Of a DNA stretch of 64,000 bases, positions 1 through 28,483 are shown in pieces. Made by a program: the position numbers and the translations under genes. Below the pieces are notes generated by a model. It was not told where the DNA came from. It searched no databases and saw only the letters and a list, made by a program, of their open reading frames with translations. The number at the start of each line of letters is the position of its first letter. Position 1 is the stretch's first letter. The stretch is taken from assembly GCA_016198905.1 (NCBI GenBank), contig JACQHR010000032.1:74390-138389 (forward strand), written 5' to 3'. Source of the stretch: Candidatus Omnitrophota bacterium (GTDB taxonomy: Bacteria; Omnitrophota; Gorgyraeia; Aquiviventales; Aquiviventaceae).

Positions 1-323
1 ACGAGACACTGGTGAACCCGCAGGCGGACCTGCGCCGCGTGACGGAACAACTCTTGAGCCGGTTCTGGCTTGAGCCGACGCGGACCGAAGCCGAGGCGTG
101 GGGTGCTTGCCCATGGGAAGACGGGCTCGGGGCATTGAGCTATTCCATGGCATTTGCGCGACGGTATCGATGGAGAGATAGCGCCAAGGCATGGCTCGCA
201 GGGGAGCTGCCCTCCCATCACCGCGGGGCATGGCCGCACGGATCGCTGGTGCTCACGCCACAACCCCTTCGTCTAGCCGTGCGCCTGGCAACGGTTCTGT
301 CCTTGCGGAAGCCGCATGATTAG
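1..323 (+). CDS. 3' end of a gene entering from upstream (function unknown, partial)
   Basis: Frame is open from the window edge to TAG 321-323. It overlaps the next ATG (316) by 8 nt, as in a coupled operon. No motif recognised. Confidence 0.4.
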   Translation, partial: ETLVNPQADLRRVTEQLLSRFWLEPTRTEAEAWGACPWEDGLGALSYSMAFARRYRWRDSAKAWLAGELPSHHRGAWPHGSLVLTPQPLRLAVRLATVLSLRKPHD

Positions 324-1269
324 CGTCGCGGTCTGTACCTATAACCGCAGCGAAAGTCTGCGCGATACGCTGCGCTCCCTAAGCGCGCAGGTGATGACCG
401 CAGACGATTCGTTGGAAGTGATCGTGGTCGATAACAACAGCACCGATCGCACTGCGGCAGTCGTGCGCGAGGAAGCAGCGCGGATGCGCTGGCCGCTGCG
501 CTACGTGGTAGAGCCTCGGCAGGGCATTGCCTTTGCTCGGAATCTGGGGCTGCAGACCGCGCGCGGACACTACGTCGCGTTTATCGATGATGATGCCATC
601 GCCGATCCGCGGTGGATCGAGTCGCTGTCGCGCGGGATCGCCGACACCGGCGCGGACTTGATCGGCGGGCGGATCGACCCGTGCTGGCTAGCACCGCGGC
701 CGACGTGGCTGACCACGGAGTTGTGCGGTCCGATCACTGCGTTTGACTGCGGTCCGCAGCGGCACCGGTGCACGACGCGGTGCTCGCACGCCTTTCTGAC
801 GACGAATGTCGCCCTCAGGCGCGCGGCGGTTGGCGCGTACGGCCTGTTTGATGTTTCGCTGGGGCGGCGCGGGACGCGCTGGGTCGGAGGCGAGGACTTT
901 GAGCTGTTTCGTCGATGGCTGCGGCAGGGCGCGGCGATCGTGTATGAACCCTCGGCGCTGGTGCAGCACAAGGTGAGTCCGGAGCGGGTGACCCCCGCTT
1001 TCTACCGTCGCTGGTTTGAGGATATCGGTTACACCCAGGCGCATCAGCTTGAGGCAAAGTGGCACCACCGGCTGAGCGTCATGCCCGCCTGGCGCTGGAA
1101 GGCGCTGGCCCTTGCCGGCGCCCGCTACGCGCTGGCTCAAACGCTGGGCGCGCACGGCGCGGACCGGCGGCTGTGCGCCGAGTTGTGGTGGCGGTTTGAG
1201 CGGAGCTTCCTGCTCGAACGGTTGGATCACTGGAGAAGGCGAAAGAACTGCCGCTTCTCACAGGCGTAG
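316..1269 (+). CDS. Glycosyltransferase family 2 (GT-A fold)
   Basis: N-terminal ISVAVCTYNR, VVDNNSTDRT and AFIDDDA (DxD), the typical GT2 signature order. Confidence 0.9.
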   Translation: MISVAVCTYNRSESLRDTLRSLSAQVMTADDSLEVIVVDNNSTDRTAAVVREEAARMRWPLRYVVEPRQGIAFARNLGLQTARGHYVAFIDDDAIADPRWIESLSRGIADTGADLIGGRIDPCWLAPRPTWLTTELCGPITAFDCGPQRHRCTTRCSHAFLTTNVALRRAAVGAYGLFDVSLGRRGTRWVGGEDFELFRRWLRQGAAIVYEPSALVQHKVSPERVTPAFYRRWFEDIGYTQAHQLEAKWHHRLSVMPAWRWKALALAGARYALAQTLGAHGADRRLCAELWWRFERSFLLERLDHWRRRKNCRFSQA

Positions 1270-1272
1270 ATT

Positions 1273-1781
1273 CGTTTCACGTTTCAGGTTTCACGTTTCA
1301 CGTGACGGACGATGACAACCGTACAGCGATTTGAACAATTGGAAGCTTGGCAGAGAGCACGGGAACTTGCCCAAGAGGTTTATGCGATCACAGGGAAGGG
1401 TTCCTTTGCAAAGGATTTTATCCTCAGAGACCAAATTCGGCGAGCTGCGGTTTCGGTTGTCGCGAATATCGCAGAGGGATTTGAGCGCAGCGGCCGAGGT
1501 GAGTTCATCCAATTTCTTGCCGTGGCCAAGGGTTCAGTCGGAGAGTTGAGGTCGCATGTATACATTGCTCACGATCAGGGGTATCTCAGCAAGGCCGAGT
1601 TTGAGCGGTTAAGCGATCTCGCCATCCGGACCGCACAGTTGGTAGGCGGGCTGATGAATTATCTGAGAGGGTCTAGCATTAAAGGCACCAAGTTCAAGAA
1701 GGTTGTCGGACTGAGTGTTGTTTCCACGCGAGGCGACTTTGCCCAACGTGAAACCTGAAACGTGAAACGCGAAACGAAACG
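1273..1781 (+). repeat. E1: heptamer-armed palindromic cassette carrying a four-helix-bundle gene
   Basis: Left arm 1274-1304 is GTTTCAC GTTTCAG GTTTCAC GTTTCAC GTG. Right arm 1747-1781 is CGTGAAAC CTGAAAC GTGAAAC GCGAAAC GAAACG. 1273-1295 is a perfect 23-nt reverse complement of 1747-1769. The cassette starts 4 nt after the upstream TAG and ends at the ATG of the next GT2. Confidence 0.9.
1312..1758 (+). CDS. Four-helix-bundle protein (23S rRNA intervening-sequence protein / S23p family, TIGR02436-like)
   Basis: FEQLEAWQRARELAQEVY...RDQIRRAAVSVVANIAEGFERSG..EFIQFLAVAKGSVGELRSH matches the family hallmark (W-Q-A...ANIAEG...A.GS..E). The stop TGA lies inside the right arm of E1. Confidence 0.85.
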   Translation: MTTVQRFEQLEAWQRARELAQEVYAITGKGSFAKDFILRDQIRRAAVSVVANIAEGFERSGRGEFIQFLAVAKGSVGELRSHVYIAHDQGYLSKAEFERLSDLAIRTAQLVGGLMNYLRGSSIKGTKFKKVVGLSVVSTRGDFAQRET

Positions 1782-2732: not shown

Positions 2733-2740
2733 AGAAGTGA

Positions 2741-3175
2741 CTACGAGAGGACAAACGCGGACAGCAAATACACAAACGGCAACGCGGCCATCCGTCGCTG
2801 CAGGCGCTCATCAGCCGTGACGAAGGGGATGCCGAGTTCCTGAGCGAGGGCTGCGAAGCTGGCATCGTAGAAGGACGCATCGTACGCGTCGGCGAGCTCG
2901 GAGGCGAGCATAGCTTGAGGCAAGGTCAACGGATGAATCGCAACGTTCAGGCTGAAGAACTCAGTAAGAATATCCAACGCGGTACGCCGAGGCATCGGCG
3001 GCCGCAGGTAACGCAGAGCATTTCCCAGTTCGTAGAGACTCAGTGTGGGGACGTGCAGCGTCCGCTTACCGCCGGCGTGTTCGAGCAGGAGTCGTTCGGC
3101 GCGCTGAAACTCAGGCTCCCGTGGCTTGACGTAGCACTTGAGGATGACCGAGGTGTCGACTACGACGTCTTCCAT
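2741..3175 (-). CDS. vapC: PIN-domain toxin VapC
   Basis: MEDVVVDTSVILK (N-terminal acidic D), later YDASF and a C-terminal TAD motif. Overlaps the upstream antitoxin gene by 16 nt. Confidence 0.85.
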   Translation of the reverse strand: MEDVVVDTSVILKCYVKPREPEFQRAERLLLEHAGGKRTLHVPTLSLYELGNALRYLRPPMPRRTALDILTEFFSLNVAIHPLTLPQAMLASELADAYDASFYDASFAALAQELGIPFVTADERLQRRMAALPFVYLLSAFVLS

Positions 3176-3441
3176 GCAGAGCCATACCGGGTGTCTCGCA
3201 GCCGGCGGATGAGCGAAGCGCTCGTCTGGCCTTTAGGCAACCGGAGGTTCGCCCCCAGGATTCGCTTCGCAGCTTGCTGCATGGCCTTTCGAGCGCTCGG
3301 CAGGGGTGGGGTCACCCGAATCGCGACATATGTGCGAATCGCCTCACGCACCAACTCGCTGCGGCTGCGATGTTCCGCGCGGGCCAAGGCATCAACATCG
3401 TGCAAGAAGTTCCGAGGCAACGACACCATCACTTTGCTCAT
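3160..3441 (-). CDS. vapB: Ribbon-helix-helix (CopG/VapB-type) antitoxin
   Basis: MSKVMVSLPRNFLHDVDALARAEHRSRSELVREAIRTYV is an RHH fold pattern. AGGAGG lies about 7 nt upstream of this internal ATG (the track ORF begins earlier, at 3534). Confidence 0.75.
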   Translation of the reverse strand: MSKVMVSLPRNFLHDVDALARAEHRSRSELVREAIRTYVAIRVTPPLPSARKAMQQAAKRILGANLRLPKGQTSASLIRRLRDTRYGSAWKTS

Positions 3442-3523
3442 GAGCAGGTCCTCCTGTGACTGGATCAAGCGTACCATGGCAGGCAATCCAAAGGCAATAC
3501 AAAAGACATACACGACGGCTCGG

Positions 3524-3586
3524 CTGCCGATCAAACCGTATGCGGCGTTGACGGTGAGCGCGCTACAGGCGATAGGGAAGAACTGA
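3524..3586 (+). repeat. Orphan 63-nt copy of the GT2 3' end (duplicate of 2670-2732)
   Basis: Encodes LPIKPYAALTVSALQAIGKN* versus LPIKPYAALTVSALQTLGRN* at 2670-2732. Differences are 5 synonymous codon changes, 3 conservative replacements and a stop-to-stop change. Confidence 0.85.
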
Positions 3587-3608
3587 AATGAGAATAGTGG
3601 AGAGCCAG

Positions 3609-3872
3609 TTACTGAAGAAACCGATAGACGTCCTTGCGCGGGCCGACTTTCAAGAGGACGACCGCTCGGTCACGATCGAGGATGTCGTACAGGACGCGGT
3701 AGGCCCCGACGCGGATGCGCCAGCACATGACGCGGCCCTTCAGCTTCTTGCATCCGGGAGGACGAGGGTCATAACGCAGGTGTTCGATCGCTTCCCGCAA
3801 GGCAGGGACCACATGCGTAGGCAGGTTGTCGAGCTCGCGCTCAACGCGGCGAGGAGTGTGGACGACCCACAT
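3609..3872 (-). CDS. RelE/ParE-family type II toxin
   Basis: 87 aa. The pattern ...KKLKGRVMCWRIRVGAYRVLYDILDRDRAVVLLKVGPRKDVY is typical of RelE/ParE. The gene directly abuts the antitoxin gene. Confidence 0.8.
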   Translation of the reverse strand: MWVVHTPRRVERELDNLPTHVVPALREAIEHLRYDPRPPGCKKLKGRVMCWRIRVGAYRVLYDILDRDRAVVLLKVGPRKDVYRFLQ

Positions 3873-4145
3873 TCAGCGGCGGGAGGGCCTCAGCGCTTTG
3901 GAGCGACCGGCACGATAGTCGCGTCGCGCCTCGGCAACTTCTTGTGCGAGCTCCTCATCCGTTTCATCCAGGCGGTCTTCCAGGTCGCTCATGAGCTGCT
4001 CGTACAGTTCCATCGACAGCAGCGCGGCGACTGCGCGTCCGCTCTTTGTGACAAAACACGGCACATGTTCTTTATGCAGCGACTTCAGCACACTCGAAAA
4101 GTGGCTGCGCACATCACTCGCAGGCAGAATTTTGATCGTCATCAC
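3873..4145 (-). CDS. Phd/YefM-family antitoxin
   Basis: 90 aa. MMTIKILPASDVRSHFSSVLKSL..EHVPCFVTKSGRAVAALLSMELYEQL is a Phd/YefM N-domain. AGGAGGTGAG RBS lies upstream on the minus strand. Confidence 0.8.
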   Translation of the reverse strand: MMTIKILPASDVRSHFSSVLKSLHKEHVPCFVTKSGRAVAALLSMELYEQLMSDLEDRLDETDEELAQEVAEARRDYRAGRSKALRPSRR

Positions 4146-4156
4146 GTCTCACCTCC

Positions 4157-4717: not shown

Positions 4718-4871
4718 GGAGGCATAATGCGTTCTGGAAACTCATCTCGCGGCAAGGTAGGTCCCGTGTCCCCGGGACTCCCTTTGCTCGTTTCGAGCAG
4801 ACACTCAGAGGTCTGCTCGATCCAGAGAGGCAACCTTGATCGAGAACGACACAAATAGAGGAGGAACGAAC

Positions 4872-5665
4872 ATGTCATTCGTGAACAAGGTACGCGCAAC
4901 ACTACGGGTCGGCGGCACGACCATGTCCTACTTGACCTACAAAGCAATGACGCGTCCACAGGAAGCCAGAGCGTTCTTTCGGGACGTGGCCGATGCGGTG
5001 ACCGAATTTCCGACGCGCTCGCGGAAGCAATTGCGCACGCCAACATTGCCGTCCGTGTCGCTCGACCGCATCTGCCCGGATATCTCGTCGGTTCAGCTGA
5101 CTATTCGACCCCACATTCCTCGCGCGCACGAACTCACTGAGGCCGAATACCTCTCCATGGCCGCGCTGATCGCTTATTACCGTCCGCGCGCGATCTTTGA
5201 GATCGGGACGAATCGCGGTCGAACGACGCGGCTCATGGCTGAGGGAGCTCCCGCGTCGGCGAAAGTCTACACGCTTGATCTTCCGCCGGAGCGCATGAAC
5301 GAAAGCGGCTGTTTTCCGGAGGCGAATGGCGCGCTCATCGGGGAAGCGTTTCGGGATGCGCCCTGCCACACAAAGATCACTCAACTCTACGGTGATAGTC
5401 GGACGTTCGACTTTCGACCGTTCGCCGGAACGATGGATTTCATCTTCATTGACGGCGACCACAGCTATGAGGGCGTCAAGAGCGACACCGCGCATGCGTT
5501 CGAAATCATCTCTCGGGGGGGGTGATCATTTGGGATGACTACCATCCTGTGTATGGCCCCGGCGTGATGCAGTATCTTGAAGAGCTGGCGGCGACACTTC
5601 CGCTGCAGCACATTGGCAATTCGCGGTTTGTCTGGTATCGCGTCCCTGAGGGTCAGACGCCTTGA
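4872..5665 (+). pseudogene. Class I SAM-dependent methyltransferase, reading frame broken at a G8 run
   Basis: GGAGG RBS before ATG 4872. IFEIGTNRGRTT, VYTLDL and FIFIDGDHSY motifs. The frame stops at 5523-5525 right after G8 (5515-5522). The frame starting at 5522 continues VIIWDDYHPVYGPGVMQYLEEL...WYRVPEGQTP* to 5665. Confidence 0.7.
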
Positions 5666-5672
5666 AGCCAAG

Positions 5673-6986
5673 ATGAGCCACCCGACCGCTACCTCACAGC
5701 CGCACCGAACCGGACGACCGATCCGAGTGGGCTATTTTCTCCGAAGCACGGGATTCGGAGGAATGGAGCGGTATCTCATTGTCGTGTTACAGCGACTCGA
5801 TCGAAAGGCGATAGAGCCCATCCTATTCCTCCACACCACCAGTGATTCTCCGCGCGAGCAGTTGCTGCAGACCTTTGCCGACTTGCGCGTCCCAGTCTTC
5901 GAGATTGACCAACGAGGAGTACCGGTGATCGAAACGAACGGCCATGATCAGAGCCATCGCCGGAAAACGCCTCAAGCCGAAGCATCAGTGCAAACCGCTT
6001 CAGGCTTCGGATCGGCCATCACAGTTGCGAAGACGCTCTGGTGGTACTGGGCGTGCATTCGCCGGACGGCTCGCTCTCTTCGACCGCATCGTCTCGATGC
6101 GGTCCACTTTGTCGCTGGATGGTTTCCGTGCTTTGAGCTTGCGGTGCTCGGCAGCCAACTGGCAGGAATTCCTGTCCGGCTCGTCGACGTCATACAGGAA
6201 CCCTACGATTTGGCGTTGCTCGAACCAGAACGGCGATGGATCGTGCGTCTTGCGGGGCGCAGCGCCACGCACGTTCGCGCCATGAACCAGCAGATGCGCC
6301 GCCAACTCGAAACACAGTACGGCATTGCCGCGCGAAAAGTCCACGTGTTGAAAGGCGTCATTGATCTTGAGCGATTTTTCGAAAGCGACAACTCACCTGC
6401 AAGCGACGTGCGAACGTCGCTGGGATTGTCTCTGGATGCGCGCCTGGTAGCGACGTTAGGACGCTTGGGGGAATACAAAGGCAACGATCTCTTCTTGCAG
6501 GCGATTCAGGCGTTGCAGGAGCGGTTTCCCCAGGTGCACTACTTGATCATCGGAGACGGGCCGTTGCGTCACGAGCTACAGGCGCAAGCCAGTCAACTGG
6601 GCCTCAGCCGTCAGGTCCATTTTCTGGGATGGCACGACGACATTCCGCTTCTCTTGCGAGCCGCGGATCTTTTCGTGATGCCTTCGATGAAAGAAGGCGG
6701 GCCATACGTGGTGGTGGAAGCCATGGCATCCGGCACGCCTGTCATTGCCACCGATGTCGGGTTTGTCCGTGAGGTGATGCAGGAGAGGACGACGGGTCGA
6801 ATCGTGCGGTCTGGCAGCGTTGAAGATTTGGTTGCTGCGATGACGGACTTACTCGAGGCGGATCCATCTGTATTGAAACGCATGGGACTTGCTGCGCGGG
6901 AACATGTGCGCACCACGATCTTGCCAGAGCCGTGGTTTGAGCGCTTGCTGAGCATTTATAGCCGGATCACCCCGGGGGTTTCTTGA
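5673..6986 (+). CDS. Glycosyltransferase family 4 (GT-B)
   Basis: C-terminal MPSMKEGGPYVVVEAMASGTPVIATDVG (EX7E region). Start placed at internal ATG 5673 (MSHPTATS), 7 nt after the methyltransferase stop. Confidence 0.85.
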   Translation: MSHPTATSQPHRTGRPIRVGYFLRSTGFGGMERYLIVVLQRLDRKAIEPILFLHTTSDSPREQLLQTFADLRVPVFEIDQRGVPVIETNGHDQSHRRKTPQAEASVQTASGFGSAITVAKTLWWYWACIRRTARSLRPHRLDAVHFVAGWFPCFELAVLGSQLAGIPVRLVDVIQEPYDLALLEPERRWIVRLAGRSATHVRAMNQQMRRQLETQYGIAARKVHVLKGVIDLERFFESDNSPASDVRTSLGLSLDARLVATLGRLGEYKGNDLFLQAIQALQERFPQVHYLIIGDGPLRHELQAQASQLGLSRQVHFLGWHDDIPLLLRAADLFVMPSMKEGGPYVVVEAMASGTPVIATDVGFVREVMQERTTGRIVRSGSVEDLVAAMTDLLEADPSVLKRMGLAAREHVRTTILPEPWFERLLSIYSRITPGVS

Positions 6987-6987
6987 C

Positions 6988-7953
6988 ATGAAGCATTCGG
7001 CGATGCCCCAGGTGAGCGTCATCATCCCCGCCTATCGCTGCGGCCGGTATCTTGGTGCGGCGCTTGCGTCCGTGTTCGCCCAAACGTATCAGACACTTGA
7101 CGTGATCGTGGTCGATGGCTCACCGCAGGAGCACGAGGAGATCTTGAAGCCGTATGCAGATCGCATCCGGCGCATCGTCCGCGAGCCGAAGGGCGTGTCG
7201 GCGGCGCGCAACGTGGGGATTCGGGAAGCGCGGGGCGAGTTCATCGCGTTCCTCGACGGTGATGATACCTGGTTACCGCAGAAGCTCGAGCGGCAGATGG
7301 CGATCTTCGAGCGCTGGCCGGATATCGCCATCGTCTTTACACGCATTGAAGACATCGATGCGCAGGGATGCGCCAAACCGGCGGCGCGCGCCGTTCCTCA
7401 AGGGCCGCATCCGTTCGGCGACTGGATCACCGAGTGCGCAACACACGATCCATGCGTCAGCGTCGGGTCAATCCACCGGACGCTTTTGAAGAACAACTAC
7501 ATCCCGACGTCTTCCGTGCTTGCGCGCCGCGACGCGCTCATCGATGCGGGCCTATTCAACGAGCAGATTCCCGTGTGCGAAGACTACGACGTGTGGCTGC
7601 GCGTGACACGGCGGCATCCGGTGGCGTATCTCAACGACGTGACCGCGCAGTACCGCGTGCGGGAAGATGGGCTCTCCGGCTCAGAGGCGGTGCGCGTCTT
7701 CCGCTGGAAGGAATGGAATGCCCGCGTGCTCGAGGCGCAGTTGGGGACCGTCCCCAATGCTCTGAAACCGATGGTGACCGAAAAGCTCGTCACGCGCTAT
7801 CGGGATGCCGGCTGGTATTGCCTGCGGCACGGACAGATTCGGCAGGCCCGGCAGCTCTTCGGCCTGTCGCTGCGGTATCGGTGGCATCAGCCGAACGCGT
7901 TAGCGGGCTTTGTCGCCTCAACATTGATCCCATCGAAGGTGAACGGTTCATGA
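6988..7953 (+). CDS. Glycosyltransferase family 2
   Basis: VSVIIPAYRC, VVDGSPQEH, AFLDGDD. ATG lies 1 nt after the preceding stop. Confidence 0.9.
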   Translation: MKHSAMPQVSVIIPAYRCGRYLGAALASVFAQTYQTLDVIVVDGSPQEHEEILKPYADRIRRIVREPKGVSAARNVGIREARGEFIAFLDGDDTWLPQKLERQMAIFERWPDIAIVFTRIEDIDAQGCAKPAARAVPQGPHPFGDWITECATHDPCVSVGSIHRTLLKNNYIPTSSVLARRDALIDAGLFNEQIPVCEDYDVWLRVTRRHPVAYLNDVTAQYRVREDGLSGSEAVRVFRWKEWNARVLEAQLGTVPNALKPMVTEKLVTRYRDAGWYCLRHGQIRQARQLFGLSLRYRWHQPNALAGFVASTLIPSKVNGS

Positions 7954-8933
7954 GCGAGCCGATCGTGAGCGTCGTCATCGCCACGCGCAACCGGGCCGCG
8001 ATGCTTAAAGAGGCCATCGCCAGCGTCGGCGCGCAGACGTATCAGGATTGGGAGCTCATCGTGGTGGATGACGGCTCGACCGATCAGACGAAGCGGGTCG
8101 CGCAGCAAGCGGCGAAGGACGATCCGCGCGTCCACTATCTTCGGCAGCCGGCCAGAGGCGGCGTGTCGAAAGCGCGCAATGCCGGCATCCACGCGGCGCG
8201 CGGGCGCTACATTGCGTTTCTCGATGACGATGACCAATTCGTTGCGGAGAAGCTCGCGACTCAAGTGGTGCACCTCGACCGTTCGCCCGAGGTGGGCTTC
8301 GTCTACGCGCAGAGCGAATGGGTGGATCGCCGCGGGACTTCGTTGGGAGTTCAGCCGACGGCGCCAGTGACTGATCTCAAGGGGCTGGTGGAGCACTGCG
8401 CGATCCCCCTGCAAACCGTCATGTGTCGTCGGGAACTGATCGAGCGGGTGGGCGGCTTCGATGAGCGGCTGTCGATCGGCGAAGACTACGACTTGTGGCT
8501 GCGGCTGGCGCGCATCACCCGGTTTGAGTTCGTCGCGCGTCCGCTGGTGCGCTACGGGGTGCATGGCGCCAATACGTGCAACGACAGCATCCGGCTCTAC
8601 GAGCAGCGGGCGATCATCCTGGCGCGCGTGCCGCTCGACCGTGCGCGGGGAATCACGTGGTGGTTCAAGCGCCGGCGCCTGGCGATCAACGCGTATCGGC
8701 TGGCGAGGCTGCACCACGAGGCGCGCGCTTTCGCGCAGGCGTCGGCGCATTTTGCCCGCGCGGTCGTCTACGACCCGATGGTCGGCCTGGCCATGGCCGA
8801 GCCGCGCCCTCGGGGGCTGGCGCGCCTGTGGGTGTCGCTGAAACCCTATCTGGCGATCGTGCTGCTCCTGATCGGGGTCAGTCCCCAAGCACGAAAAGTA
8901 GCGAGATCACCCGATTGGGGTCTGACCCCATGA
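7950..8933 (+). CDS. Glycosyltransferase family 2
   Basis: VSVVIATRNR, VVDDGSTDQT, AFLDDDD. ATGA start/stop overlap with the preceding gene. The track ORF's long N-terminal extension (from 7368) overlaps the previous GT2 out of frame. Confidence 0.9.
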   Translation: MSEPIVSVVIATRNRAAMLKEAIASVGAQTYQDWELIVVDDGSTDQTKRVAQQAAKDDPRVHYLRQPARGGVSKARNAGIHAARGRYIAFLDDDDQFVAEKLATQVVHLDRSPEVGFVYAQSEWVDRRGTSLGVQPTAPVTDLKGLVEHCAIPLQTVMCRRELIERVGGFDERLSIGEDYDLWLRLARITRFEFVARPLVRYGVHGANTCNDSIRLYEQRAIILARVPLDRARGITWWFKRRRLAINAYRLARLHHEARAFAQASAHFARAVVYDPMVGLAMAEPRPRGLARLWVSLKPYLAIVLLLIGVSPQARKVARSPDWGLTP

Positions 8934-16466: not shown

Positions 16467-16495
16467 ATGCGGAACGCGGAGTGCGGAATCGAGGA
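16422..16495 (+). repeat. E10: G-rich arm followed by a TGCGGAA heptamer block (no C-arm)
   Basis: TGGGGCAAGGGGCAGGAGACGGGGGGCGGGGGAGGG ... TGCGGAA CGCGGAG TGCGGAA TCGAGGA. The GT4 stop TGA 16464-66 lies between the two blocks. Confidence 0.8.
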
Positions 16496-16540
16496 AGCAA
16501 TTGAGACCTAACGCGAAGCGAACGTCACGTTGGGGCGGCG

Positions 16541-18437: not shown

Positions 18438-20717
18438 ATTCGCGTGATGTTCGTGATCTGGTCGCTCGGCCTCGGCGGAGCGGAGCAGGCGGTGATCCGG
18501 CTGGCCGCGGGCCTTCGGCGCGAAGGGTTCGAGCCGTTGATCTGCTGTCTCAACGAGCCGGGTCCCTTCGCTGTGCAAGCGCAGGCCGCCGGCGTGCCCG
18601 TCGTGGCGCTGCACAAACGGTGGCGCTATGACGCGCGCGTGCTCTGGCGCTTGATGCGGTTGATGCGGCAGTGGCATCCGGACGTCGTGCACACGCATCT
18701 GTGGGGCGGCAACGCGTGGGGGCGGACGGCGGCCTGGCTGGTGGGTGTTCCGGTCATCGTCACGAGCGAGCGGAATCTGGATCCTTGGAAACGCTGGTAC
18801 TATTTTGTGATCGACCGCGTGCTCGCAGCGCGGACCACGACGTTGCTGGCCGTCTCCGAGTCCGTGCGGGCGTTCTACGAGCAGCACGGGGTCGGCCGCG
18901 GCCGCTGGCAAGTCTGCTACAACGGCGTCGATATCGCCGACGTAACACCCCGGCAGCGAGGAGCCGTGTTCGCGCAACTGGGCGCGCAGCATGGCGAGCC
19001 GGTCGTCGGCTTCATCGGACGCTTGGCTTCGGCAAAGGCTCCGGATGTGTTCGTCGAGGCGGTCGCACAGGCGCGCCGAACACTCCCTTCGCTGAAAGCG
19101 CTCATCGTCGGCGACGGGCCGCTGCGCAGCGAGGTTGAAGCCTTGGCGCGTCGATTGGGATTGGATGGGCATCTCGTGGTGACCGGCGTGCGCGAGGATA
19201 TCCCGGAGCTGCTGGCGGGGATGGACGCGCTGATGGTGTCGTCCGAGCGCGAGGGGCTCTCCATGGCGATGTTGGAGGCCATGGCGGCAGGAGTCCCGGT
19301 TATCGCGACTCGAGTAGGAGGCACTCCTGAACTCATCGAGCCGGGGATGACCGGACTGCTTGCGCCTCCAGGCGCGCCCGACGCATTGGCGCGCCAGTTG
19401 GTGGCACTCCTGACCAATCCCGCGCACGCGCAGGCCATTCGCGATGCGGCCCGCGCGCGAGTGGCGAAGGATTTTTCCATGCAGCGCGTGGTGGCGACGC
19501 ATGCAGCAGTGTACCGCCGCGGCCTCAAGCAGGCCAACCGTGCAGGACTCAGTGATCGCGTCAAAGAGGCGGCGGCATCGCTTCCCATCGCTCACCGCGC
19601 TCGCCTCCGCGTCATGCATGTCATCGACGATCTCGGACTCGGAGGCGCGCAGCGGCAGCTCGTGGAGCTCGTCAAGGCGTTCCCGCGGGATCGCTATGAG
19701 CTGCACGTTGTGAGTCTCTCGACGACGAAGACGGACTACGCGGAGGCGCTCCACGCAGCGGAGATTCGCCTGACGCAAATCCCGCAGGCCGGCAAATGGG
19801 ATGGCCGTTGTTTTTCGACGCTCTCCACGCTGATCAAAACCGAGAAGCCTTCCATCGTCCACACGTGGCTCTTTACCGCCGACCTCTATGGCCGCATGGC
19901 GGCGTGGGTGGCGCATGTGCCGGTCATCATCAGCGCGGTGCGCAGTGTGGAGCCGGATAAGCCCGCGCACTACGTCGTGGTGGATCGCGTCCTGCGCAAC
20001 ATCACCAGTGCCTTCACCGTCAATGCGCGCGCGATTGGCGAGGTGCTGACGGCGCGCGAGCATGTGCCGACGGAGAAGATTCATACGATCTATAACGGGC
20101 TCGATCTGCGCGCCCTGGATCCATCCCGCGTGAATGGAGCGATTCGGCGCGCCATCGCCGTCGGCGCCGACGTCCCCCTGATCGGGATCGTCGGGCGTCT
20201 AGCGCCGGTGAAGGATCACGCCACGTTTCTGCGCGCGGCAGTGCGCGTGCATCGTGAAGCGCCACAGGCGCGGTTTCTCATCGTCGGCAACGGTTTGCTT
20301 CACGGCGAGCTCGAGCAGTTGAGCCAATCATTGGGCCTGAGCGATGTCGTTCGCTTTCTCGAGAGCCAATCCAACGTAGCCGAGGTGTTCGCCGCGCTCG
20401 ATGTCGTCGTCGTGTCCTCCCTCTATGAAGGCTGCTGCAACGTGATCCTCGAAGCGATGGCGATGGGCAAGCCCGTGATCGCCACAGCCGTCGGGGGCAA
20501 TCCTGAGCTCATCAGCGACGGGCAAACCGGGCTGCTCGTGCCCGTGGGCGATGATGCGAAGCTGGCCGAGGCGATGGTGAGCCTGCTGCGTGATCCGCAG
20601 CGCGCGCAGGCGATGGGCCGCTCGGGGCGAGCGCGCGTGGAGTGCGACTTCGCCATCGAGCGGATGGTCGTCGCAACCGATCGCGTCTATCAGAAACTGT
20701 TGAGTCGCGCCCCATGA
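18396..20717 (+). CDS. Double GT4 glycosyltransferase (natural tandem fusion, no element at the joint)
   Basis: Module 1: IRVMFVIWSLGLGGAEQAVIRLAAGL...SSEREGLSMAMLEAMAAGVPVIATRVGG. Module 2: LRVMHVIDDLGLGGAQRQL...SSLYEGCCNVILEAMAMGKPVIATAVGG. The N-terminal MTPSPRPSPLAPRP is the E11 right arm (alternative ATG 18447). Confidence 0.85.
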   Translation: MTPSPRPSPLAPRPIRVMFVIWSLGLGGAEQAVIRLAAGLRREGFEPLICCLNEPGPFAVQAQAAGVPVVALHKRWRYDARVLWRLMRLMRQWHPDVVHTHLWGGNAWGRTAAWLVGVPVIVTSERNLDPWKRWYYFVIDRVLAARTTTLLAVSESVRAFYEQHGVGRGRWQVCYNGVDIADVTPRQRGAVFAQLGAQHGEPVVGFIGRLASAKAPDVFVEAVAQARRTLPSLKALIVGDGPLRSEVEALARRLGLDGHLVVTGVREDIPELLAGMDALMVSSEREGLSMAMLEAMAAGVPVIATRVGGTPELIEPGMTGLLAPPGAPDALARQLVALLTNPAHAQAIRDAARARVAKDFSMQRVVATHAAVYRRGLKQANRAGLSDRVKEAAASLPIAHRARLRVMHVIDDLGLGGAQRQLVELVKAFPRDRYELHVVSLSTTKTDYAEALHAAEIRLTQIPQAGKWDGRCFSTLSTLIKTEKPSIVHTWLFTADLYGRMAAWVAHVPVIISAVRSVEPDKPAHYVVVDRVLRNITSAFTVNARAIGEVLTAREHVPTEKIHTIYNGLDLRALDPSRVNGAIRRAIAVGADVPLIGIVGRLAPVKDHATFLRAAVRVHREAPQARFLIVGNGLLHGELEQLSQSLGLSDVVRFLESQSNVAEVFAALDVVVVSSLYEGCCNVILEAMAMGKPVIATAVGGNPELISDGQTGLLVPVGDDAKLAEAMVSLLRDPQRAQAMGRSGRARVECDFAIERMVVATDRVYQKLLSRAP

Positions 20718-23700: not shown

Positions 23701-26383
23701 CGACTATGGCGATACGCGGACGTGGTATCGCAAGGACGCTTACGACAAATCCTACGACGACTGGGGCTGGCACCCGGAGGGCCGCTGGGGCTGGCACAAC
23801 TGCGAGGCGGTGGGCAGCCACGGGGGCGCGCTGATGAGCTTCCTGCGGACGCAGGAGCTCAAGTACTTCCGCTTCGGCGAGGCGAAGGCGCGCCACGTGA
23901 TGGACGTCGACACCGTCCACTACGATACGATTGCCAACGACTCGCGGCTTTCGCGCAAGCTCTCGGATGAGTTCTCGAAGGTCGGCTCCATGCACCGCCA
24001 CAACGCCTATCACTGGGGCGGGCGCAACGAGGAGGCCACGCACACGAACGTCGCCGGGCTGCTCCTCTACTACTATCTCACCGGCTATGAGCGCGCGCTG
24101 GATGTCGCGAAGGAAGCCGGCGGCTTCATGCTGTTTGATCCGGTGACCTACACCAAGCATCCGGACATCGCCCCCTCGCGCGCGATCGGCAACGTGCTCT
24201 GGAACGATACACTCCTCTTTGAAGCCACCGGCGAGCGGCGCTACCGCACCGCGGCCGAGCGGTGGGTGCGCGTGCTGCTCAAAGGCCAGCAGAAAGACGG
24301 CACGTGGCTGGAGACGTACAATCCGCGCAACGGCACCTGGTACGGCGATGTCAAGACGAACTACCTCTGCTACCACGTGCTGCCGGCGCTCATCGCCTAC
24401 CACCGCCTGACCGGCAACCCGGCCGTCGCCCAGGCGATTGTGATGGGCACCAATGCGATGATCGCCAAGGAGCCGTACCTGCAGTTCTTCGACGCGCTGG
24501 CCTACAGCTTTCTCATCACGGGCAAGGGCGAGTACGTTGATGAAGGGCTGCGGCGAGCGATGGCGCTGTATCGGTCGCAGCGGCGCGATGAAGATCCGGC
24601 GTTCAACGGCACCGTTTTTGAGAAGGCAACCTATGACCGTGTGGGGCCGATCCTGTATTCCGTGCCGTTTGCCATCGGCGCGATGGACGCGACGGATTTT
24701 CCAACGCTGGAGCAGTCCTTCCAACCCCCATCACGACCAACGAGCACGCCTCCTCGCTCGACACAGACCAGTCAGCAGGCTTCCCCCACAGCCACCGCGC
24801 AGACCGGCGCATCCTATGAAGTGCTTGTCGTCCCGTCGATGGAAAAAGTGTTTCCTCAGGATCAGCGGCCGGCGAGCGCGCACAGCAATCCGGCGGTGCT
24901 GGCACTCGCCCGCAACGAATATGAGTCCGTCCAGCTCGTGCTACGAGCCAGCGCCCCGCTGGAACAGGTGACGGTTGAGACGCACGATCTGACGCGCACC
25001 GACGGCACGGGTGTCATTCCTCGTGACGCGCTGACGTGGTTTCCGGTCGGGTTTGTGAAGACGAGGCAGCCGGACTATGACGTCTCGCGCGTGGGCTGGT
25101 GGCCTGATCCGTTGCTCGATCCAACACCGTTTGCCGTCCAGGCAGGATGGTGGCAGCCGATGTGGCTGACGGTGTACGCAGCCCCCGGCACGCCTGCAGG
25201 AGAGTACACGGGCACCGTGACGATCCGGCCAGGCAATGCGCCGCCCAAAGACGTCGAGGTGAAGGTGCGGGTGTGGGATTTCGACTTGCCGGCGACCCCG
25301 ACGCTCAAAAGCGCGTTTGACGTCTATCCGGCGAGAATCGACAGCGCCTACCGCCAATTCTTTCCGCAGTGGTGGCCGCGCGTGCAGGGACGGACCGCGC
25401 AGCTGACGCAGTGGATCGATGACGACCTCCTTCGCCATCGTCTGGCACCGATGCTCAACGCGGATCTCCAGCGGCCCGAGACGATGAGCGAGCTGCGGCG
25501 CCTGCGCGCGAAGGGGCTGAGCGCATTCGCCATCGGTCGCTACAGCGGCAGCTTCGACAACAACTGGCCCACGGACGGCACGCAGCTCGAGCAGCTCCAA
25601 CCCGTGTACCGGGCGTATGGCTACCAGCTGCGCGACGCCAAGCTGATCGATCGGCACTACATCTATACGTACGATGAACCGGCGCCGGGGCTGCCGCATG
25701 TCGCCGCAGTCGCGCACATGGTGCACGACGCGGATCCGCAACTGAAGAACCTGGTAACACTCGGCGCGCCGATGGATGTGACAGCGCTCGCCGGGTGGTT
25801 GAAGGACATCGATATCGTCTGCCTGCGCAACGTGATCGCGCAGTCGGAATCGATCCGCGCCCTGCAGCAGATGGGCAAAGAAGTCTGGCTCTACGTCTCC
25901 GGGCCGAAGCCGCCGTATCCGACGCTGGTGATCGATTATCCGTCGCTGGCCTATCGCATCCTGCCGTGGATGTGCTGGAAGTACGGCATCCGCGGACTGC
26001 TCTATTGGAGCGTCAATTACTGGACGACGAACCCGTACGAGCAGCCGATGAATACGCCGTGGCAACAAAACGGCAACGGCTCGTTGTACTATCCAGGACC
26101 CGAGGGCCCGCGCCCGTCGCTGCGGCTGGAAGTGCTGCGCGATGGGATGGAGGACTACGAGTATCTGTCCCGGTTGCGCGAGTTGATCCAATCAGCGAAG
26201 GCCGGCGGGCGCATCGATGCCGCGACGTTGGCCCGGGCGGAACAGTTGGTGAACGTGAATGACGGGTTCGTGGAGTCGCTGCGCGTCTACTCGAATGATC
26301 CCGCGGTGCTGTTGGCGCAGCGTCAGGCGATTGCAGAGATGATCGAGAAGCTCCAAAACATACTGAAGGGGCAAGGGGCATGA
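20714..26383 (+). CDS. Giant membrane-anchored multidomain protein: metallophosphoesterase + polysaccharide lyase/hydrolase-like region + DUF4091-like domain
   Basis: Two N-terminal hydrophobic helices. Phosphoesterase motifs: QITDLHIT, ITGDLIND, VPGNTDN, LLAHSPD, GHTHGGQ. A long beta/alpha-toroid-like middle region (tentatively PcRGLX/YetA-like). P/S/T/Q linker (PPSRPTSTPPRSTQTSQQASPTATAQ). C-terminal WWPDPL...LLYWSVNYW (DUF4091/GH123-like). ATGA overlap at the start. Stop lies inside the E12 left arm. Confidence 0.7.
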   Translation: MNVIKLLKLAFVAAHAGVIGLVILRAWSLSLAESRAVAGRFLRVALTRLLLVVMVELSPYVYARFVEPNMVVVTRLRVAQDQLAHALGGRRVVQITDLHITTIGARERRLIQRVNRQRPDWIVITGDLINDAAGWRAALEVIGRLKATQGIWVVPGNTDNAILSPDSFAQGLAGVNAKVLRNSRIRMAETDAWLVGVDDPVERRDSLDEALKGMDRSAPPPMILLAHSPDILDAAVAARIPLVLVGHTHGGQLGIPWLRRLSSYADRGPYVGGGRYHVEQTTMYVNRGIGWKEIPHRFLAPPEVLVIEFRPQGKRAAPTAESPPVRAEVWLSDFERDGEEAVLWNVFNAFATHSREHASHGQACAKVTLKAGFSSSYALEDDFLTRDPARRDWTRDEALAFDVYNAQSVPEPLIVRIRDDGKGLYEETITLPSRVPHTVTLSLADLSRSLDLSRVSGLALLRKDSTHDVVLYLDAVRLLPRRAGAPASGVSTGAATEEPSALEDAAVTPHMLGRWHFEHDLVSRWRAADPATGRSVVRVPLTVVGPQMPLSVGQPIAGGIPFAMGQLAANAAIRVHDMNGAVWPAQTRPLAVWEDGSVKWLLVTAQVPMTARSRQLWLEYGEPVAADPAPQPRVRVDDTPQAVTVTTGPLRFTVSRRHFTLFDSTFVDRNRDGVFAEAERLASAGDLVLKRGDTEFRSSRDTVSYMLQVEEAGPVRATLKASGWFRDAAGRGFCQFTVRLQAFAGLPQVRVYHTFIYTGYPANLYNPNYEGIKLPANETIQDISLELPVTLGATTQLITADEQGLVTAPLTNPTSISQLAHDAYQIRQQGAASPLRAGAHHEGWLLMQDSNAGVMVGVRDAWQQYPKAFEVDAASRRLIVRLWPSSAGDLNLETGADAYGPDAVARGSAFGLAKTHELWVGFLGAVIDGSTARALAGLWQEPWLLSAHPAWVQDTDALGTVGPAEMDRFPEQEAMLEDVFGWAKRQPQRFDWYGMLDYGDTRTWYRKDAYDKSYDDWGWHPEGRWGWHNCEAVGSHGGALMSFLRTQELKYFRFGEAKARHVMDVDTVHYDTIANDSRLSRKLSDEFSKVGSMHRHNAYHWGGRNEEATHTNVAGLLLYYYLTGYERALDVAKEAGGFMLFDPVTYTKHPDIAPSRAIGNVLWNDTLLFEATGERRYRTAAERWVRVLLKGQQKDGTWLETYNPRNGTWYGDVKTNYLCYHVLPALIAYHRLTGNPAVAQAIVMGTNAMIAKEPYLQFFDALAYSFLITGKGEYVDEGLRRAMALYRSQRRDEDPAFNGTVFEKATYDRVGPILYSVPFAIGAMDATDFPTLEQSFQPPSRPTSTPPRSTQTSQQASPTATAQTGASYEVLVVPSMEKVFPQDQRPASAHSNPAVLALARNEYESVQLVLRASAPLEQVTVETHDLTRTDGTGVIPRDALTWFPVGFVKTRQPDYDVSRVGWWPDPLLDPTPFAVQAGWWQPMWLTVYAAPGTPAGEYTGTVTIRPGNAPPKDVEVKVRVWDFDLPATPTLKSAFDVYPARIDSAYRQFFPQWWPRVQGRTAQLTQWIDDDLLRHRLAPMLNADLQRPETMSELRRLRAKGLSAFAIGRYSGSFDNNWPTDGTQLEQLQPVYRAYGYQLRDAKLIDRHYIYTYDEPAPGLPHVAAVAHMVHDADPQLKNLVTLGAPMDVTALAGWLKDIDIVCLRNVIAQSESIRALQQMGKEVWLYVSGPKPPYPTLVIDYPSLAYRILPWMCWKYGIRGLLYWSVNYWTTNPYEQPMNTPWQQNGNGSLYYPGPEGPRPSLRLEVLRDGMEDYEYLSRLRELIQSAKAGGRIDAATLARAEQLVNVNDGFVESLRVYSNDPAVLLAQRQAIAEMIEKLQNILKGQGA

Positions 26384-26456
26384 GACGCGGGGCAGGAAAA
26401 ACCAAATTTGGTATTGAGGATTTTCCCACGCCCCGTGCCCCCGTCTCCCGCCCCTT
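26366..26456 (+). repeat. E12: palindromic element at the giant-protein / deacetylase junction
   Basis: Left AAGGGGCAAGGGGCATGAGACGCGGGGCAGG. The loop has a GGAAAA...TTTTCC clamp and an internal CCAAATTTGG palindrome. Right CACGCCCCGTGCCCCCGTCTCCCGCCCCTT. Confidence 0.85.
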
Positions 26457-26476
26457 AGTCTAGAGGAGTCTAATCG

Positions 26477-27265
26477 ATGCGCATTGTAGCGCTAACCTTT
26501 CACGATATTGTTCCTAACGGCAACGACGCCGCGATCAAGAGCGATGAGTTCTACCGCATCACCACGAGTGAATTCGAGAAGCTCCTCTCACAGTTGCGCA
26601 AGCTCGGCTATCAAACGGTCAGCTCCCGCACGTTTCGCGCCTGGCAGCAAGGCTCAGGCACGCTGCCCGAGCGCACCGTCGTCCTCACGTTCGATGACGG
26701 CCACGCGAATCATTTCGAGCTCGTCGCGCCGTTGCTGGTGCGATATCGATTCACCGGCACGTTCTTCGTCACGAGCGGATTCATCGGCACACCCGGCTAT
26801 ATGAATTGGGAGCAGCTGCGCAAGCTCGTGTTCCTCGGCATGGAGATCGGCTCGCATGGCGCCACCCATCGGCCGCTGACGCAACTAGCTCGCGCGGCAG
26901 TGGTCGACGAGCTTGCGTCATCGAAGACGCTCTTGGAGCAGCGGCTGGGCATTCCGGTTCAGGCGATGGCAGCACCCGGCGGGTTCTGGAATCACACCAT
27001 AGCCGATGCGTCCAAAGAGGCGGGCTACGAGGCGGTGTGGGTCTCGACGATCGGCACGAACGGCAAGGAGACGAGCCCGCTGGCGTTGCGCCGCGTCGTC
27101 GTGCGGCAGCCGTTTTCCGTCGAGCGGATCGTGGCGATGGTCGAGGGCTGGCAACCGGCCTTCTGGTGGGCGGCGAATCAACAATTGCTCATTCGGCTGC
27201 TCAAGCGCGTCCTCGGCGTCTATTGGTACGAACAACTCAAGCGCCGCCTCGTTCCCAATGCCTAG
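26477..27265 (+). CDS. Polysaccharide deacetylase (CE4/NodB-type), paralog 2, without element insertion
   Basis: LTFDDGHANH, GSHGATH and APGGFWN motifs. Confidence 0.85.
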   Translation: MRIVALTFHDIVPNGNDAAIKSDEFYRITTSEFEKLLSQLRKLGYQTVSSRTFRAWQQGSGTLPERTVVLTFDDGHANHFELVAPLLVRYRFTGTFFVTSGFIGTPGYMNWEQLRKLVFLGMEIGSHGATHRPLTQLARAAVVDELASSKTLLEQRLGIPVQAMAAPGGFWNHTIADASKEAGYEAVWVSTIGTNGKETSPLALRRVVVRQPFSVERIVAMVEGWQPAFWWAANQQLLIRLLKRVLGVYWYEQLKRRLVPNA

Positions 27266-27341
27266 AGGGAGCGTGGGGCGTGGGGCGTGGGGCGTGGGAA
27301 AACCGCTTTTCCCTCGCCCCCCATCTCCTGTCCCTTGCCCC
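27266..27341 (+). repeat. E13: palindromic element at the deacetylase / GT2 junction
   Basis: Left AGGGA + (GCGTGGG)x4. Inner clamp GGGAAAA-CCGC-TTTTCCC (27296-27313). Right CTCGCCCCCCATCTCCTGTCCCTTGCCCC, which is close to the reverse complement of the E10-type G-arm. Confidence 0.85.
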
Positions 27342-27349
27342 AATCTGTG

Positions 27350-28483
27350 ATGATCTTCATGTGTTGGTTGTCGCTTGCCACCCTAAGTTACATCTACGCG
27401 GGCTATCCGCTCCTCGTCTGGCTGCTCGCGCATCTCTTTGGACGCGAGCCGCAGCGTCGGGAAATCACGCCGACGGTGTCGCTGCTCATTCCCGCCTATA
27501 ACGAGGACGCGCACCTCGAGCGCAAGCTGCGCAACAGCCTCGCGCTCGACTACCCCAAACATCTTCTTGAGATCACCGTCGCCAGCGACGGCTCGACCGA
27601 CCGGACCGATGCGATCGCGCAGTCCTTTCACGCGCAGGGCGTGGCACTCATGCGCATGCCCTCCAACGTCGGCAAATCCGCGATGCTCAACGCGGTCGTG
27701 CCGCATCTGCGCGGCGAGATCGTGGTCTTTTCCGACGCGTCAGGCGATCTGGAACCGGATGCGCTGCGGCGGCTCTTACGAAATTTTGCCGATCCGCGCG
27801 TGGGCTGCGTCTCCGGGCTGTATCGTCTGCGCGCGACGGGTAGCGATCTGCGCGGAGAAGGCGAAGGGCTGTATTGGACGTATGAGACGTTCATCAAAGA
27901 GCAGGAAAGCCGGCTGCATTCGATTCTCGGCGCGCACGGGGCGTTCTACGCGATCCGCGCCGCGCTGTTTCAGCCGCTGCGCGATGGTGCGATCAACGAC
28001 GACTATTTAATTCCCATGCAGGTCGTCGCCCAGGGTTATCGAGCGGTGTACGAGCCCGAAGCCAAAGCGTGGGAACACGAGACCGCGTCGGTTGAGAGCG
28101 AGTTTGCCCGTCGACGGCGCATCGCGGCCGGAAACTGCCAGCAAATCGTCGAACTGCGGCGTCTCTTTCATCCTCGCTATGGATGGGTGGCGTTGACGTT
28201 TTTCTCACACAAAGTGCTGCGCACGCTCGCACCACTCTTCATGATCACGCTGCTCCTCTCCAGTGCGTGGCTGCCGCGGCCATGGGCGACGCTGATGCTC
28301 GGACTACAGGCCGTGTTCTACGGCAGCGCGTGGATCGGCTACATCTGTCAGCGACGCGGCCATGCCGTGAAGTGGCTTTCACCGTCGCTCTACTTCTGCC
28401 TGGGCAACCTCGCCATGCTCGCCGGAGTGCTCGCCTACTGCCTCGCTCCCCAGCACGTCGTCTGGGGACGTCCTCGCTCGTAA
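27350..28483 (+). CDS. Membrane-bound glycosyltransferase family 2 (processive synthase-like)
   Basis: N-terminal TM, VSLLIPAYNED, VASDGSTDRT, VFSDAS and RRRIAAG (QxxRW-position variant), then C-terminal TM helices. Start at internal ATG 27350, just after E13. Confidence 0.8.
   Translation: MIFMCWLSLATLSYIYAGYPLLVWLLAHLFGREPQRREITPTVSLLIPAYNEDAHLERKLRNSLALDYPKHLLEITVASDGSTDRTDAIAQSFHAQGVALMRMPSNVGKSAMLNAVVPHLRGEIVVFSDASGDLEPDALRRLLRNFADPRVGCVSGLYRLRATGSDLRGEGEGLYWTYETFIKEQESRLHSILGAHGAFYAIRAALFQPLRDGAINDDYLIPMQVVAQGYRAVYEPEAKAWEHETASVESEFARRRRIAAGNCQQIVELRRLFHPRYGWVALTFFSHKVLRTLAPLFMITLLLSSAWLPRPWATLMLGLQAVFYGSAWIGYICQRRGHAVKWLSPSLYFCLGNLAMLAGVLAYCLAPQHVVWGRPRS

Follow-up and report, generated by a model that had tools for sequence, protein, structure and literature searches.

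Heptamer-armed elements at the gene junctions of an Omnitrophota polysaccharide operon as probable insertions of the 23S rRNA intervening sequence type

In enterobacteria, repetitive extragenic palindromes (REP) and bacterial interspersed mosaic elements (BIME) are short imperfect palindromes that separate co-transcribed genes and can increase the stability of the mRNA lying upstream. A different kind of element is the intervening sequence (IVS) with an S23p open reading frame (ORF) found in helix 9, 25 or 45 of the 23S rRNA of Coxiella burnetii, Leptospira and Brucella, where it is transcribed as part of the host RNA. The IVS of Coxiella burnetii is 428 nt long, contains an S23p (PF05635) ORF and a 28-bp terminal stem, harbors upstream of this ORF a tandem array of GACAGAT heptamers whose number, three to four, varies among strains, and is cut by RNase III within the stem, as found in vitro and mapped by rapid amplification of cDNA ends (PMC4990558). 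Heptamer repeats are also known from Xanthomonas (GGGAATC) and Nostoc (GGGGAYT, short tandemly repeated repetitive or STRR sequences), with four units favoured and a position between co-oriented ORFs near stops or starts, including around 70 convergent inverted pairs per Xanthomonas genome (PMC4692102); TAACTGA repeats occur in Beggiatoaceae and cyanobacteria (PMC4679880). These published repeats are transcribed, and have been read as G-quadruplexes or translational signals, with no link to PF05635 (PMC4692102; PMC4679880). Here we describe a locus that joins gene-carrying IVS-type elements, miniature derivatives and heptamer repeats, the last of which had been described on their own in Xanthomonas and cyanobacteria. 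It lies in a 64-kb stretch of contig JACQHR010000032.1 (hereafter the window) from a metagenome-assembled genome (MAG) of a Candidatus Omnitrophota bacterium. The first 28.5 kb of the window are a plus-strand polysaccharide cluster of ~62% G+C, whose products are GT2 and GT4 glycosyltransferases (GT), two Wzy-like proteins, two deacetylases and a multidomain hydrolase of 1889 aa. The palindromes present at its gene junctions are probably one family of IVS-type selfish elements, tolerated as insertions in an ancestrally tight operon.

Thirteen copies of the element were identified (Table 1). They follow one plan, with two inverted arms of ~30 nt, each consisting of about four tandem heptamers, and Tandem Repeats Finder (TRF) resolves the arms as period-7 arrays of 3.4 to 4.7 copies. 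At least three heptamer families are present in the window (GGGGCRR, CGTTTCA and GACCCAA/ATCAGAC), and nine G-type left arms have a common order of units, GGGGCAR-GGGGCGG-GAGACRG-GGGGCRG. Two copies, E1 and E11, are full-length and harbor an intact ORF of the PF05635/TIGR02436 family (“23S rRNA intervening sequence protein”), while the 11 others lack one and are miniature, chimeric, one-armed or partial. Arm families are common to short and full-length copies, as seen in a repeat comparison (D1, D3, D6, D8 and I4); for example, the right-arm repeat of E4 is 91% complementary to the left arm of E1, and E12 is 73% identical to E6 over 90 nt. The ORF of E1 was recognised by Pfam with E = 1.9e-33 and also matches TIGR02436; that of E11 has E = 1.5e-34 and is above the cutoff of NF008911, and its protein matches PDB 2GSC (XCC0516) with E = 1.5e-21 and has a 100% identical counterpart (P0001) in a Candidatus Omnitrophica MAG. 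The two paralogues are only 32% identical to each other and are flanked by different heptamers (CGTTTCA versus GGGGCRR). In both cases the arms pair as terminal stems of ~25-32 bp, those of E1 being complementary at 100% over 25 nt and at ~90% over 33 nt.

Table 1. Repeat elements of the polysaccharide cluster and the two element-free regions between its genes. z, score of the fold; MFE, minimum free energy.
Feature	Position	Strand	Make-up	Location and coding effect	Fold
E1	1270-1780	+	Full-length; left arm 1270-1308, (CGTTTCA) x4.4; PF05635 ORF 1312-1758; right arm 1743-1780, (AACGTGA) x4.6 (TRF)	Between GT2 gene 316-1269 and GT2 gene 1782-2732	Terminal stem of ~32 bp in MFE and centroid folds
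Partial element	9633-9684	+	G-type left arm and CACGAAAC remnant; D1 repeat family	Inside GT4 module A, ORF 8930-11464; in frame, GEGRETGGAG	No hairpin, z = +1.4
E3	10134-10214	+		Linker between two GT4 modules, ORF 8930-11464; in frame, GQGTGDRGRGNALPTPRAPRPAPQ	-39.5 kcal/mol, z = -1.1 (weak)
E4	10409-10503	+	Chimeric; G-type (E11-type) left arm, (CAGCACA) x3, E1-type right arm (GTGAAAC)	Inside GT4 module B; in frame	No hairpin, z = +1.4
E5	12918-13002	+		Wzy-like/GT junction; left arm codes for C-terminal tail of 11461-12957, loop holds both its stop TAG 12955-12957 and the ATG 12962 of the next gene, right arm codes for MPTIPPPPAPRP	-44.3 kcal/mol, z = -2.8
E6	13563-13663	+	Miniature	Inside GT gene 12962-14344; in frame, HGARGGRQGAG...PPVPRPPSH	-64 kcal/mol, z = -6.3
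E7	14265-14336	+	Miniature	C-terminal tail of 12962-14344, just 5' of TAATG 14342-14346	-41.9 kcal/mol, z = -2.6
E8	14561-14663	+	Miniature	Inside deacetylase gene 14344-15204; in frame, RGQGAGGGRRGN...PRPAPRAPRPK	-71.5 kcal/mol, z = -5.9
E9	15201-15330	+	Composite heptamer hairpin; (ATCAGAC) x4, (GACCCAA) x4, (CCCGAGTCTTGAGT) x3	Directly after ATGA 15201	-48.9 kcal/mol, z = -4.7
E10	16421-16490	+	One-armed; G-type left arm and (GAATGCG) x3.6, no matching right arm	GT4/Wzy-like junction, stop 16464-16466, next ATG 16541	No hairpin, z = +0.75
E11	17983-18443	+	Full-length; left arm 17983-18026, G-type; PF05635 ORF 18028/18034-18399; right arm 18400-18443, (CCCCTCG) x4.6	Between Wzy-like gene 16541-18025 and GT4 gene 18396-20717; host stop TAG 18023-18025 at the loop edge	Terminal stem in MFE and centroid folds
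E12	26364-26456	+	Miniature	Between 1889-aa gene and deacetylase-like gene 26477-27265; stop TGA 26381-26383 of the former created inside the left arm	-47.1 kcal/mol, z = -3.9
E13	27265-27345	+	Miniature; left arm (GCGTGGG) x4 (TRF, 4.0 copies, 100% match)	Fills the spacer from stop 27263-27265 to ATG 27350	-49.2 kcal/mol, z = -3.9
Toxin-antitoxin island	2741-4145	-	PIN 2741-3175, ribbon-helix-helix (RHH) antitoxin 3160-3534, ParE 3609-3872, Phd/YefM 3873-4145 (Pfam)		
Structured spacer	4718-4871	+	Two ordinary hairpins	Strong GGAGG before ATG 4872	-54.1 kcal/mol, z = -2.7

E1 and E11 are closer to the 23S IVS than to REP/BIME, because they have a PF05635 ORF inside terminal inverted repeats, a terminal stem of ~28 bp and tandem heptamers, with 4.4-4.6 copies in their arms and three to four in Coxiella. 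The elements differ from the 23S IVS in their setting, an mRNA operon where they lie at cistron boundaries or inside ORFs, and in that most copies are ORF-less, several are read through in frame and many are clustered at one locus. No rRNA was detected in the window by Rfam, all copies being located in a protein-coding operon and not in a 23S rRNA helix, and no Rfam family matched the elements in the window at gathering thresholds. The elements are best described as IVS-type. Their co-transcription with the operon is probable, since no element has a terminator signature with a T tail; intrinsic terminators occur at shuffle-level counts and none coincides with an element. The palindromic character that the first-pass annotation attributed to the elements is valid for the full-length E1 and E11 and for the seven copies (E5-E9, E12 and E13) whose terminal inverted repeats fold into stems of 25-35 bp (-42 to -72 kcal/mol, z of -2.6 to -6.3), but not for E4, E10 and the partial element, whose arms are unmatched and form no hairpin, and barely for E3.

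The G-rich and C-rich heptamer arrays hold no stop triplet in any phase, so that ORFs read through the elements automatically. All five copies lying within ORFs (the four intragenic ones and E3) preserve the frame without a stop, in agreement with the coding read-through noted previously, and from the sequence they are predicted to be translated into Gly/Arg/Gln-rich and then Pro/Arg/Ala-rich peptides. They fall where orthologues have indels. The three element-encoded segments of the 844-aa GT4-GT4 protein (8930-11464) are gaps in most orthologues; for example, the partial element is a 10-aa insertion with respect to most of them (alignment columns 240-250), and the E4 segment is a gap in P0124, P0130, P0132 and P0141. 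E8 is located N-terminal to the Pfam domain of the deacetylase, which begins at residue 103. Elements also provide coding ends, both Wzy-like genes having their TAG stop in the loops of E5 and E11. This is relevant to annotation, since stop-free repeat arms silently extend or interrupt ORFs and shift predicted starts, stops and protein lengths.

The first-pass annotation had presented the region as a ~28-kb operon where nearly every cistron junction is either a start/stop overlap or a palindromic element. The plus-strand cluster is real, but a minus-strand toxin-antitoxin island interrupts it at 2741-4145, and at least two transcription units are thus present. The ATGA overlaps at 7950, 8930, 11461, 15201, 18396 and 20714 are all found at these coordinates, as are the TAATG junction announced at 14344, an 8-nt overlap 323/316 (ATGATTAG at 316-323) and the near-abutment of 6986 and 6988 (TGA 6984-6986, then C, then ATG at 6988; TGA-C-ATG, 6984-6990). 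The junction from 5665 to 5673 also exists (TGA 5663-5665, ATG 5673), but the methyltransferase frame arrives at this stop only by shifting phase within eight consecutive G (5515-5522). This G8 run breaks the methyltransferase gene 4872-5525, the other phase reading IIWDDYHPVYG... up to TGA 5663-5665, and could stem from an assembly error, mark a site of slippage, or reflect a genuine frameshift or pseudogene. Two of the overlaps, at 15201 and 18396, hinge on the start chosen, the alternatives being GTG 15330 and GTG 18444/ATG 18447; they may represent ancestral starts now trailed by an element, or the real starts may be GTG 15330 and GTG 18444. Depending on this choice, E9 either extends the N-terminus of the GT4 product by 43 aa or, if GTG 15330 is used, is the 5' leader of the gene.

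Repeat elements were located at the junctions previously assigned to E1, E5, E7, E9, E10, E11, E12 and E13, and the two announced exceptions, the toxin-antitoxin island and the 4718-4871 spacer, are indeed free of elements; neither TRF nor a lag-7 scan found a period-7 array in this spacer, which is not a heptamer element. The junction pattern stands insofar as 9 of ~18 same-strand junctions carry an element, yet four further copies lie inside genes. With respect to random placement within +/-60 nt of a junction (~0.08 per element), the occurrence of 9 of the 13 elements at one of ~18 junctions has a binomial P of ~5e-8, E3 standing in the list of elements at claimed junctions although it belongs to an inter-domain linker. 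Purifying selection on insertions alone predicts the same enrichment. Tight junctions are equally common in the remaining window (28.5-64 kb), so that only the elements, and not the tight junctions, are special to this operon: lag-7 arrays number 23 in 1-28.5 kb and 0 in 28.5-64 kb, and no long palindrome was found in the second half of the window. A presumed orientation bias, with the G-rich arm first on the sense strand, was dropped as it carries no information, because such a palindrome reads G-first on both strands.

The comparison with related operons argues for insertion. E3 had been considered as a junction element that created a gene fusion, which is ruled out: the two-module GT4-GT4 protein is ancestral, since at least 20 relatives encode it as one conserved ORF (42-56% identity, 747-853 aa). 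Its linker is variable among orthologues and empty in some, so that E3 lies in a variable inter-domain linker and fused no cistrons. Three syntenic contigs were compared (L081, L082 and L083), L081 and L082 being independent assemblies from other runs. L083 has the same gene order, with 12 junctions that all overlap or abut and zero heptamer arrays, and thus represents an “empty” operon. At 13780-13835 of L083, the N-terminus of the GT gene reads MRLSRPTRLLSRPT, a peptide with a 7-residue period that may be what is left, after decay, of an element at the Wzy/GT junction. L081 has an empty TAATG junction, followed by a GT N-terminus reading MAALGTIFSQFP, where the window has E5. It also harbors at 2859-3009 a non-heptamer double hairpin (-87 kcal/mol), in frame in its GT4-GT4 orthologue and adding ~47 residues, so that the palindromes tolerated in frame by this lineage belong to more than one family.

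L082 possesses elements at seven positions matching those of the window, two in the GT4-GT4 gene and the others at the Wzy/GT junction, inside the GT gene, at the GT/deacetylase junction, inside the deacetylase gene and at the deacetylase/GT4 junction. Its arms are mostly of the GAGACAA/GGGACAG type, with one of the GGAAGTT type. At the Wzy/GT junction its element differs from E5; the E6 site is filled in both L082 and L081, with GAGACAR arms; the E7 site has a GGAAGTT/CCAGCCT-type element in L082, where the E8 site is also occupied. The deacetylase/GT4 junction is swapped, with a GGGGC-type element in L082 and a GACCCAA-type element in the window, both directly after a conserved CGATGA. The presence of different subfamilies at orthologous sites points to turnover and not static inheritance, through re-insertion at preferred sites or conversion between copies.

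According to the scenario that we favour, IVS-type elements would have invaded an Omnitrophota polysaccharide operon in which every junction was originally tight, with genes abutting or overlapping by 4 nt or 1 nt, and insertions would have survived only at harmless sites, i.e. cistron boundaries or the variable loops, linkers and termini of proteins. At cistron boundaries, the loop or arm would provide a new stop codon, and in some cases a start codon as well, and within proteins the stop-free arms would simply be translated. The alternation of overlaps and elements thus most likely corresponds to tight junctions, some of which have tolerated an insertion, and less likely to a designed system of the REP/BIME type. 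On the transcript, intact copies would fold as stems of 25-35 bp without terminator tails, which by analogy with the 23S IVS and Correia elements are probable RNase III substrates, and cleavage would cut the polycistronic mRNA into segments. The mRNA processing proposed in the first-pass annotation is plausible on the basis of this analogy, and “processing site” is a reasonable term because cleavage of the homologous IVS stem by RNase III has been demonstrated in Coxiella.

Several observations weigh against this scenario. Seven sites are filled in both the window and L082, whose proteins are only 55-72% identical, and this requires site preference, gene conversion or selection for retention beyond random insertion and tolerance. 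Cleavage by RNase III would destroy the mRNAs of the four genes with intragenic hairpins, so either it is inefficient or this part of the scenario is wrong. Neither a target-site duplication nor a transposase was found: inspected by eye, and without an exact empty/filled pair from close relatives, the element ends have no convincing or consistent direct repeat, and mobility is deduced only from filled versus empty sites and subfamily turnover. Finally, the scenario does not account for the strong confinement of the elements to the operon, with 13 copies there and none in the other 35.5 kb.

The main competing explanation is a REP/BIME-like system kept by selection at cistron boundaries, where the elements would act as mRNA stabilisers or processing sites setting differential expression. 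We regard it as unlikely, although it accounts well for the nine copies at junctions and for the stable stems devoid of T tails. It would also account for the occupation of the same junctions in L082 despite deep divergence, with pairing maintained (GGGGC/GCCCC versus GAGAC/GTCTC), and the cutting of homologous IVS stems by RNase III (PMC4990558) is in line with it. However, junction enrichment is expected from purifying selection alone, L083 has the same gene order and tight junctions without a single element, and the deacetylase/GT4 junction harbors unrelated heptamer families in the window and in L082. In addition, four copies are intragenic, three have no pairing partner and two carry a protein gene, which is never the case in REP/BIME. 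The resemblance to REP/BIME pointed out by the first-pass annotation therefore holds for the placement between co-directional cistrons, but not for an exclusively extragenic location, several arms even coding for protein termini; its remark that a different element is involved was correct. REPs are extragenic single palindromes of 20-40 nt with a conserved 5' GTAG, mobilised by REP-associated tyrosine (RAYT, Y1) transposases, whereas the arms of the window elements are period-7 arrays of at least three heptamer families, some read through by ORFs, and two copies harbor a four-helix-bundle gene. No RAYT was found among the named operon ORFs, within the scope of the 64-kb window and not of the genome.

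Other miniature elements are similar in some respects only. Correia elements (also called Neisseria miniature insertion sequences, NEMIS) in Neisseria and enterobacterial repetitive intergenic consensus (ERIC) sequences in Yersinia are co-transcribed miniature inverted repeats cleaved by RNase III, which alters transcript levels (PMC10969869). Correia elements have unique-sequence terminal inverted repeats of 26 bp, a TA target duplication, a site for integration host factor and no known protein-coding parent, and they have no sequence relationship to the window elements. Rickettsia palindromic elements (RPE) are inserted in frame in unrelated genes and translated as extra peptides at permissive sites (PMC10969869), similarly to our within-ORF copies, which are also in-frame insertions with respect to orthologues. 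RPE, however, form unique-sequence families of 100-150 bp restricted to Rickettsia, without heptamer arms or a PF05635 parent, and the window elements, from an Omnitrophota and with heptamer-array arms, belong neither to their sequence families nor to their lineage. [quoted passage not shown]

The association of PF05635 with heptamer arrays extends beyond this locus. In a sample of 80 PF05635 loci from many phyla, chosen solely by protein patterns, a period-7 array is present in 112 of the 160 gene flanks, with a median of 4.3 copies and a mode of 4, and no other period is as prominent as 7 and its multiples. Lag-7 arrays amount to 2.23 per kb in the flanks against 0.25 per kb across the remainder of the loci, a 9-fold difference. 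In the flanks, lags 6 and 8-10 have values close to zero, and lag 5, for which the detector is less stringent, is only ~2-fold up (0.65 versus 0.36 per kb). Of 74 loci, 42 have upstream and downstream flanks whose complementarity lies above the 99th percentile of controls and is nearly always 7-nt periodic. The heptamer varies from genome to genome (e.g. CGGTTTT, GTGGTTA and GCTGTTA). In 53 of 68 assessable loci the PF05635 gene is co-oriented with both neighbours at short distances, indicating that embedding at operon junctions is typical of these genes. Outside the flanks, the same loci (L001-L080) contain 93 more lag-7 arrays, as compared to 11 of lag 8 and 3 of lag 9, so that ORF-less heptamer arrays near PF05635 genes seem common in other phyla.

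These data suggest that PF05635 genes with inverted heptamer arrays are a common, operon-embedded and largely undescribed class of elements. A link between PF05635 and heptamer arrays was found reported only for Coxiella, in a literature coverage that is incomplete and therefore no proof of novelty, and a 2024 review of MITEs has no mention of IVS or heptamers. More tentatively, and with the odds rather against it, a widespread undescribed class could be envisaged that unites PF05635, inverted arrays of about four heptamers and miniatures, and of which the 23S IVS would be the rRNA subset, the PF05635 pentamer recognising its own arrays with one unit per subunit and driving turnover at favoured positions, stop/start overlaps for example. 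Where the rRNA IVS and the very common “four helix bundle protein” genes come from, and what they do, has been a question since around 1990, and the link makes this vague question testable through pentamer-array binding, RNase III sites in mRNAs and the movement or conversion of copies.

Taken by itself as the explanation of the arrays, such binding by a toroidal PF05635 pentamer, with one heptamer per subunit in a post-transcriptional or mobility system, appears improbable, but it could be combined with the tolerated insertion of IVS-type elements. Across phyla, PF05635 genes are found together with inverted heptamer arrays, the copy number of these arrays peaks at 4 to 4.7, and the two divergent paralogues of the window each have their own heptamers. 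The protein Avd of diversity-generating retroelements, related to PF05635, binds nucleic acid and reverse transcriptase. The XCC0516 homologue (PDB 2GSC) is a homopentameric toroid, as cited in PMC4990558. On the other hand, the S23p protein of Coxiella is apparently not made and its ORF is decaying (PMC4990558), many arrays have no nearby PF05635 gene, and the preference for four units could also reflect the stem length for RNase III or a G-quadruplex (PMC4692102).

The latter possibility, that the G-rich arms have a regulatory role as G-quadruplex-forming repeats, similarly to what has been put forward for GGGAATC in Xanthomonas and GGGGAYT in Nostoc, is very doubtful. The GGGGCRR (G-type) arms do contain at least four G-tracts of 3-5 G, and the published repeats, whose heptamer sequences are not those of the window elements, share the preference for four units and for co-oriented ORFs and are often convergent inverted pairs (PMC4692102). 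The CGTTTCA, GACCCAA, ATCAGAC and GAATGCG arrays nevertheless fall short of this number of tracts, and the first three families, as well as most heptamers of the 80 loci (CGGTTTT, GTGGTTA and GCTGTTA among them), cannot form a G-quadruplex. As most heptamer families are not G-rich, G-quadruplexes were rejected as the common denominator; what the families share is a period of 7 nt together with inverted pairing, rather than G content. An artefact of assembly or annotation, conceivable in a MAG where repeats can cause misassembly, is hardly credible given the intact ORFs through the elements, the matching sites in the independently assembled L081 and L082 and the same architecture in 80 unrelated genomes.

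Some features of the neighbourhood are worth mentioning. A 66-nt direct repeat (2668-2733 and 3522-3587, 85% identity) lies on either side of the PIN/RHH pair of the toxin-antitoxin island, its second copy duplicating the 3' terminus of GT2 gene 1782-2732, a layout suggestive of cassette insertion through recombination or with a long duplication of the target. The sole strong intrinsic-terminator-like site of the first 32 kb is located at 31664-31691 on the plus strand, after the gene 28680-31313, and consists of a 12-bp GC-rich stem followed by a T run. Further downstream, 36498-36612 of the plus strand matches domains D1-D4 of group II introns in Rfam (44 bits, E = 1.3e-5), with no obvious reverse-transcriptase ORF after it on this strand. 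A perfect 18-bp hairpin (36375-36412) lies ~90 nt upstream of this match, an arrangement reminiscent of introns inserting after terminator stems. Finally, the G+C content falls to 0.51 at 44001-46000, as compared to ~0.60 elsewhere, a stretch that may be a foreign or regulatory region and that includes an AT-rich 12-nt tandem repeat at 45253-45281.

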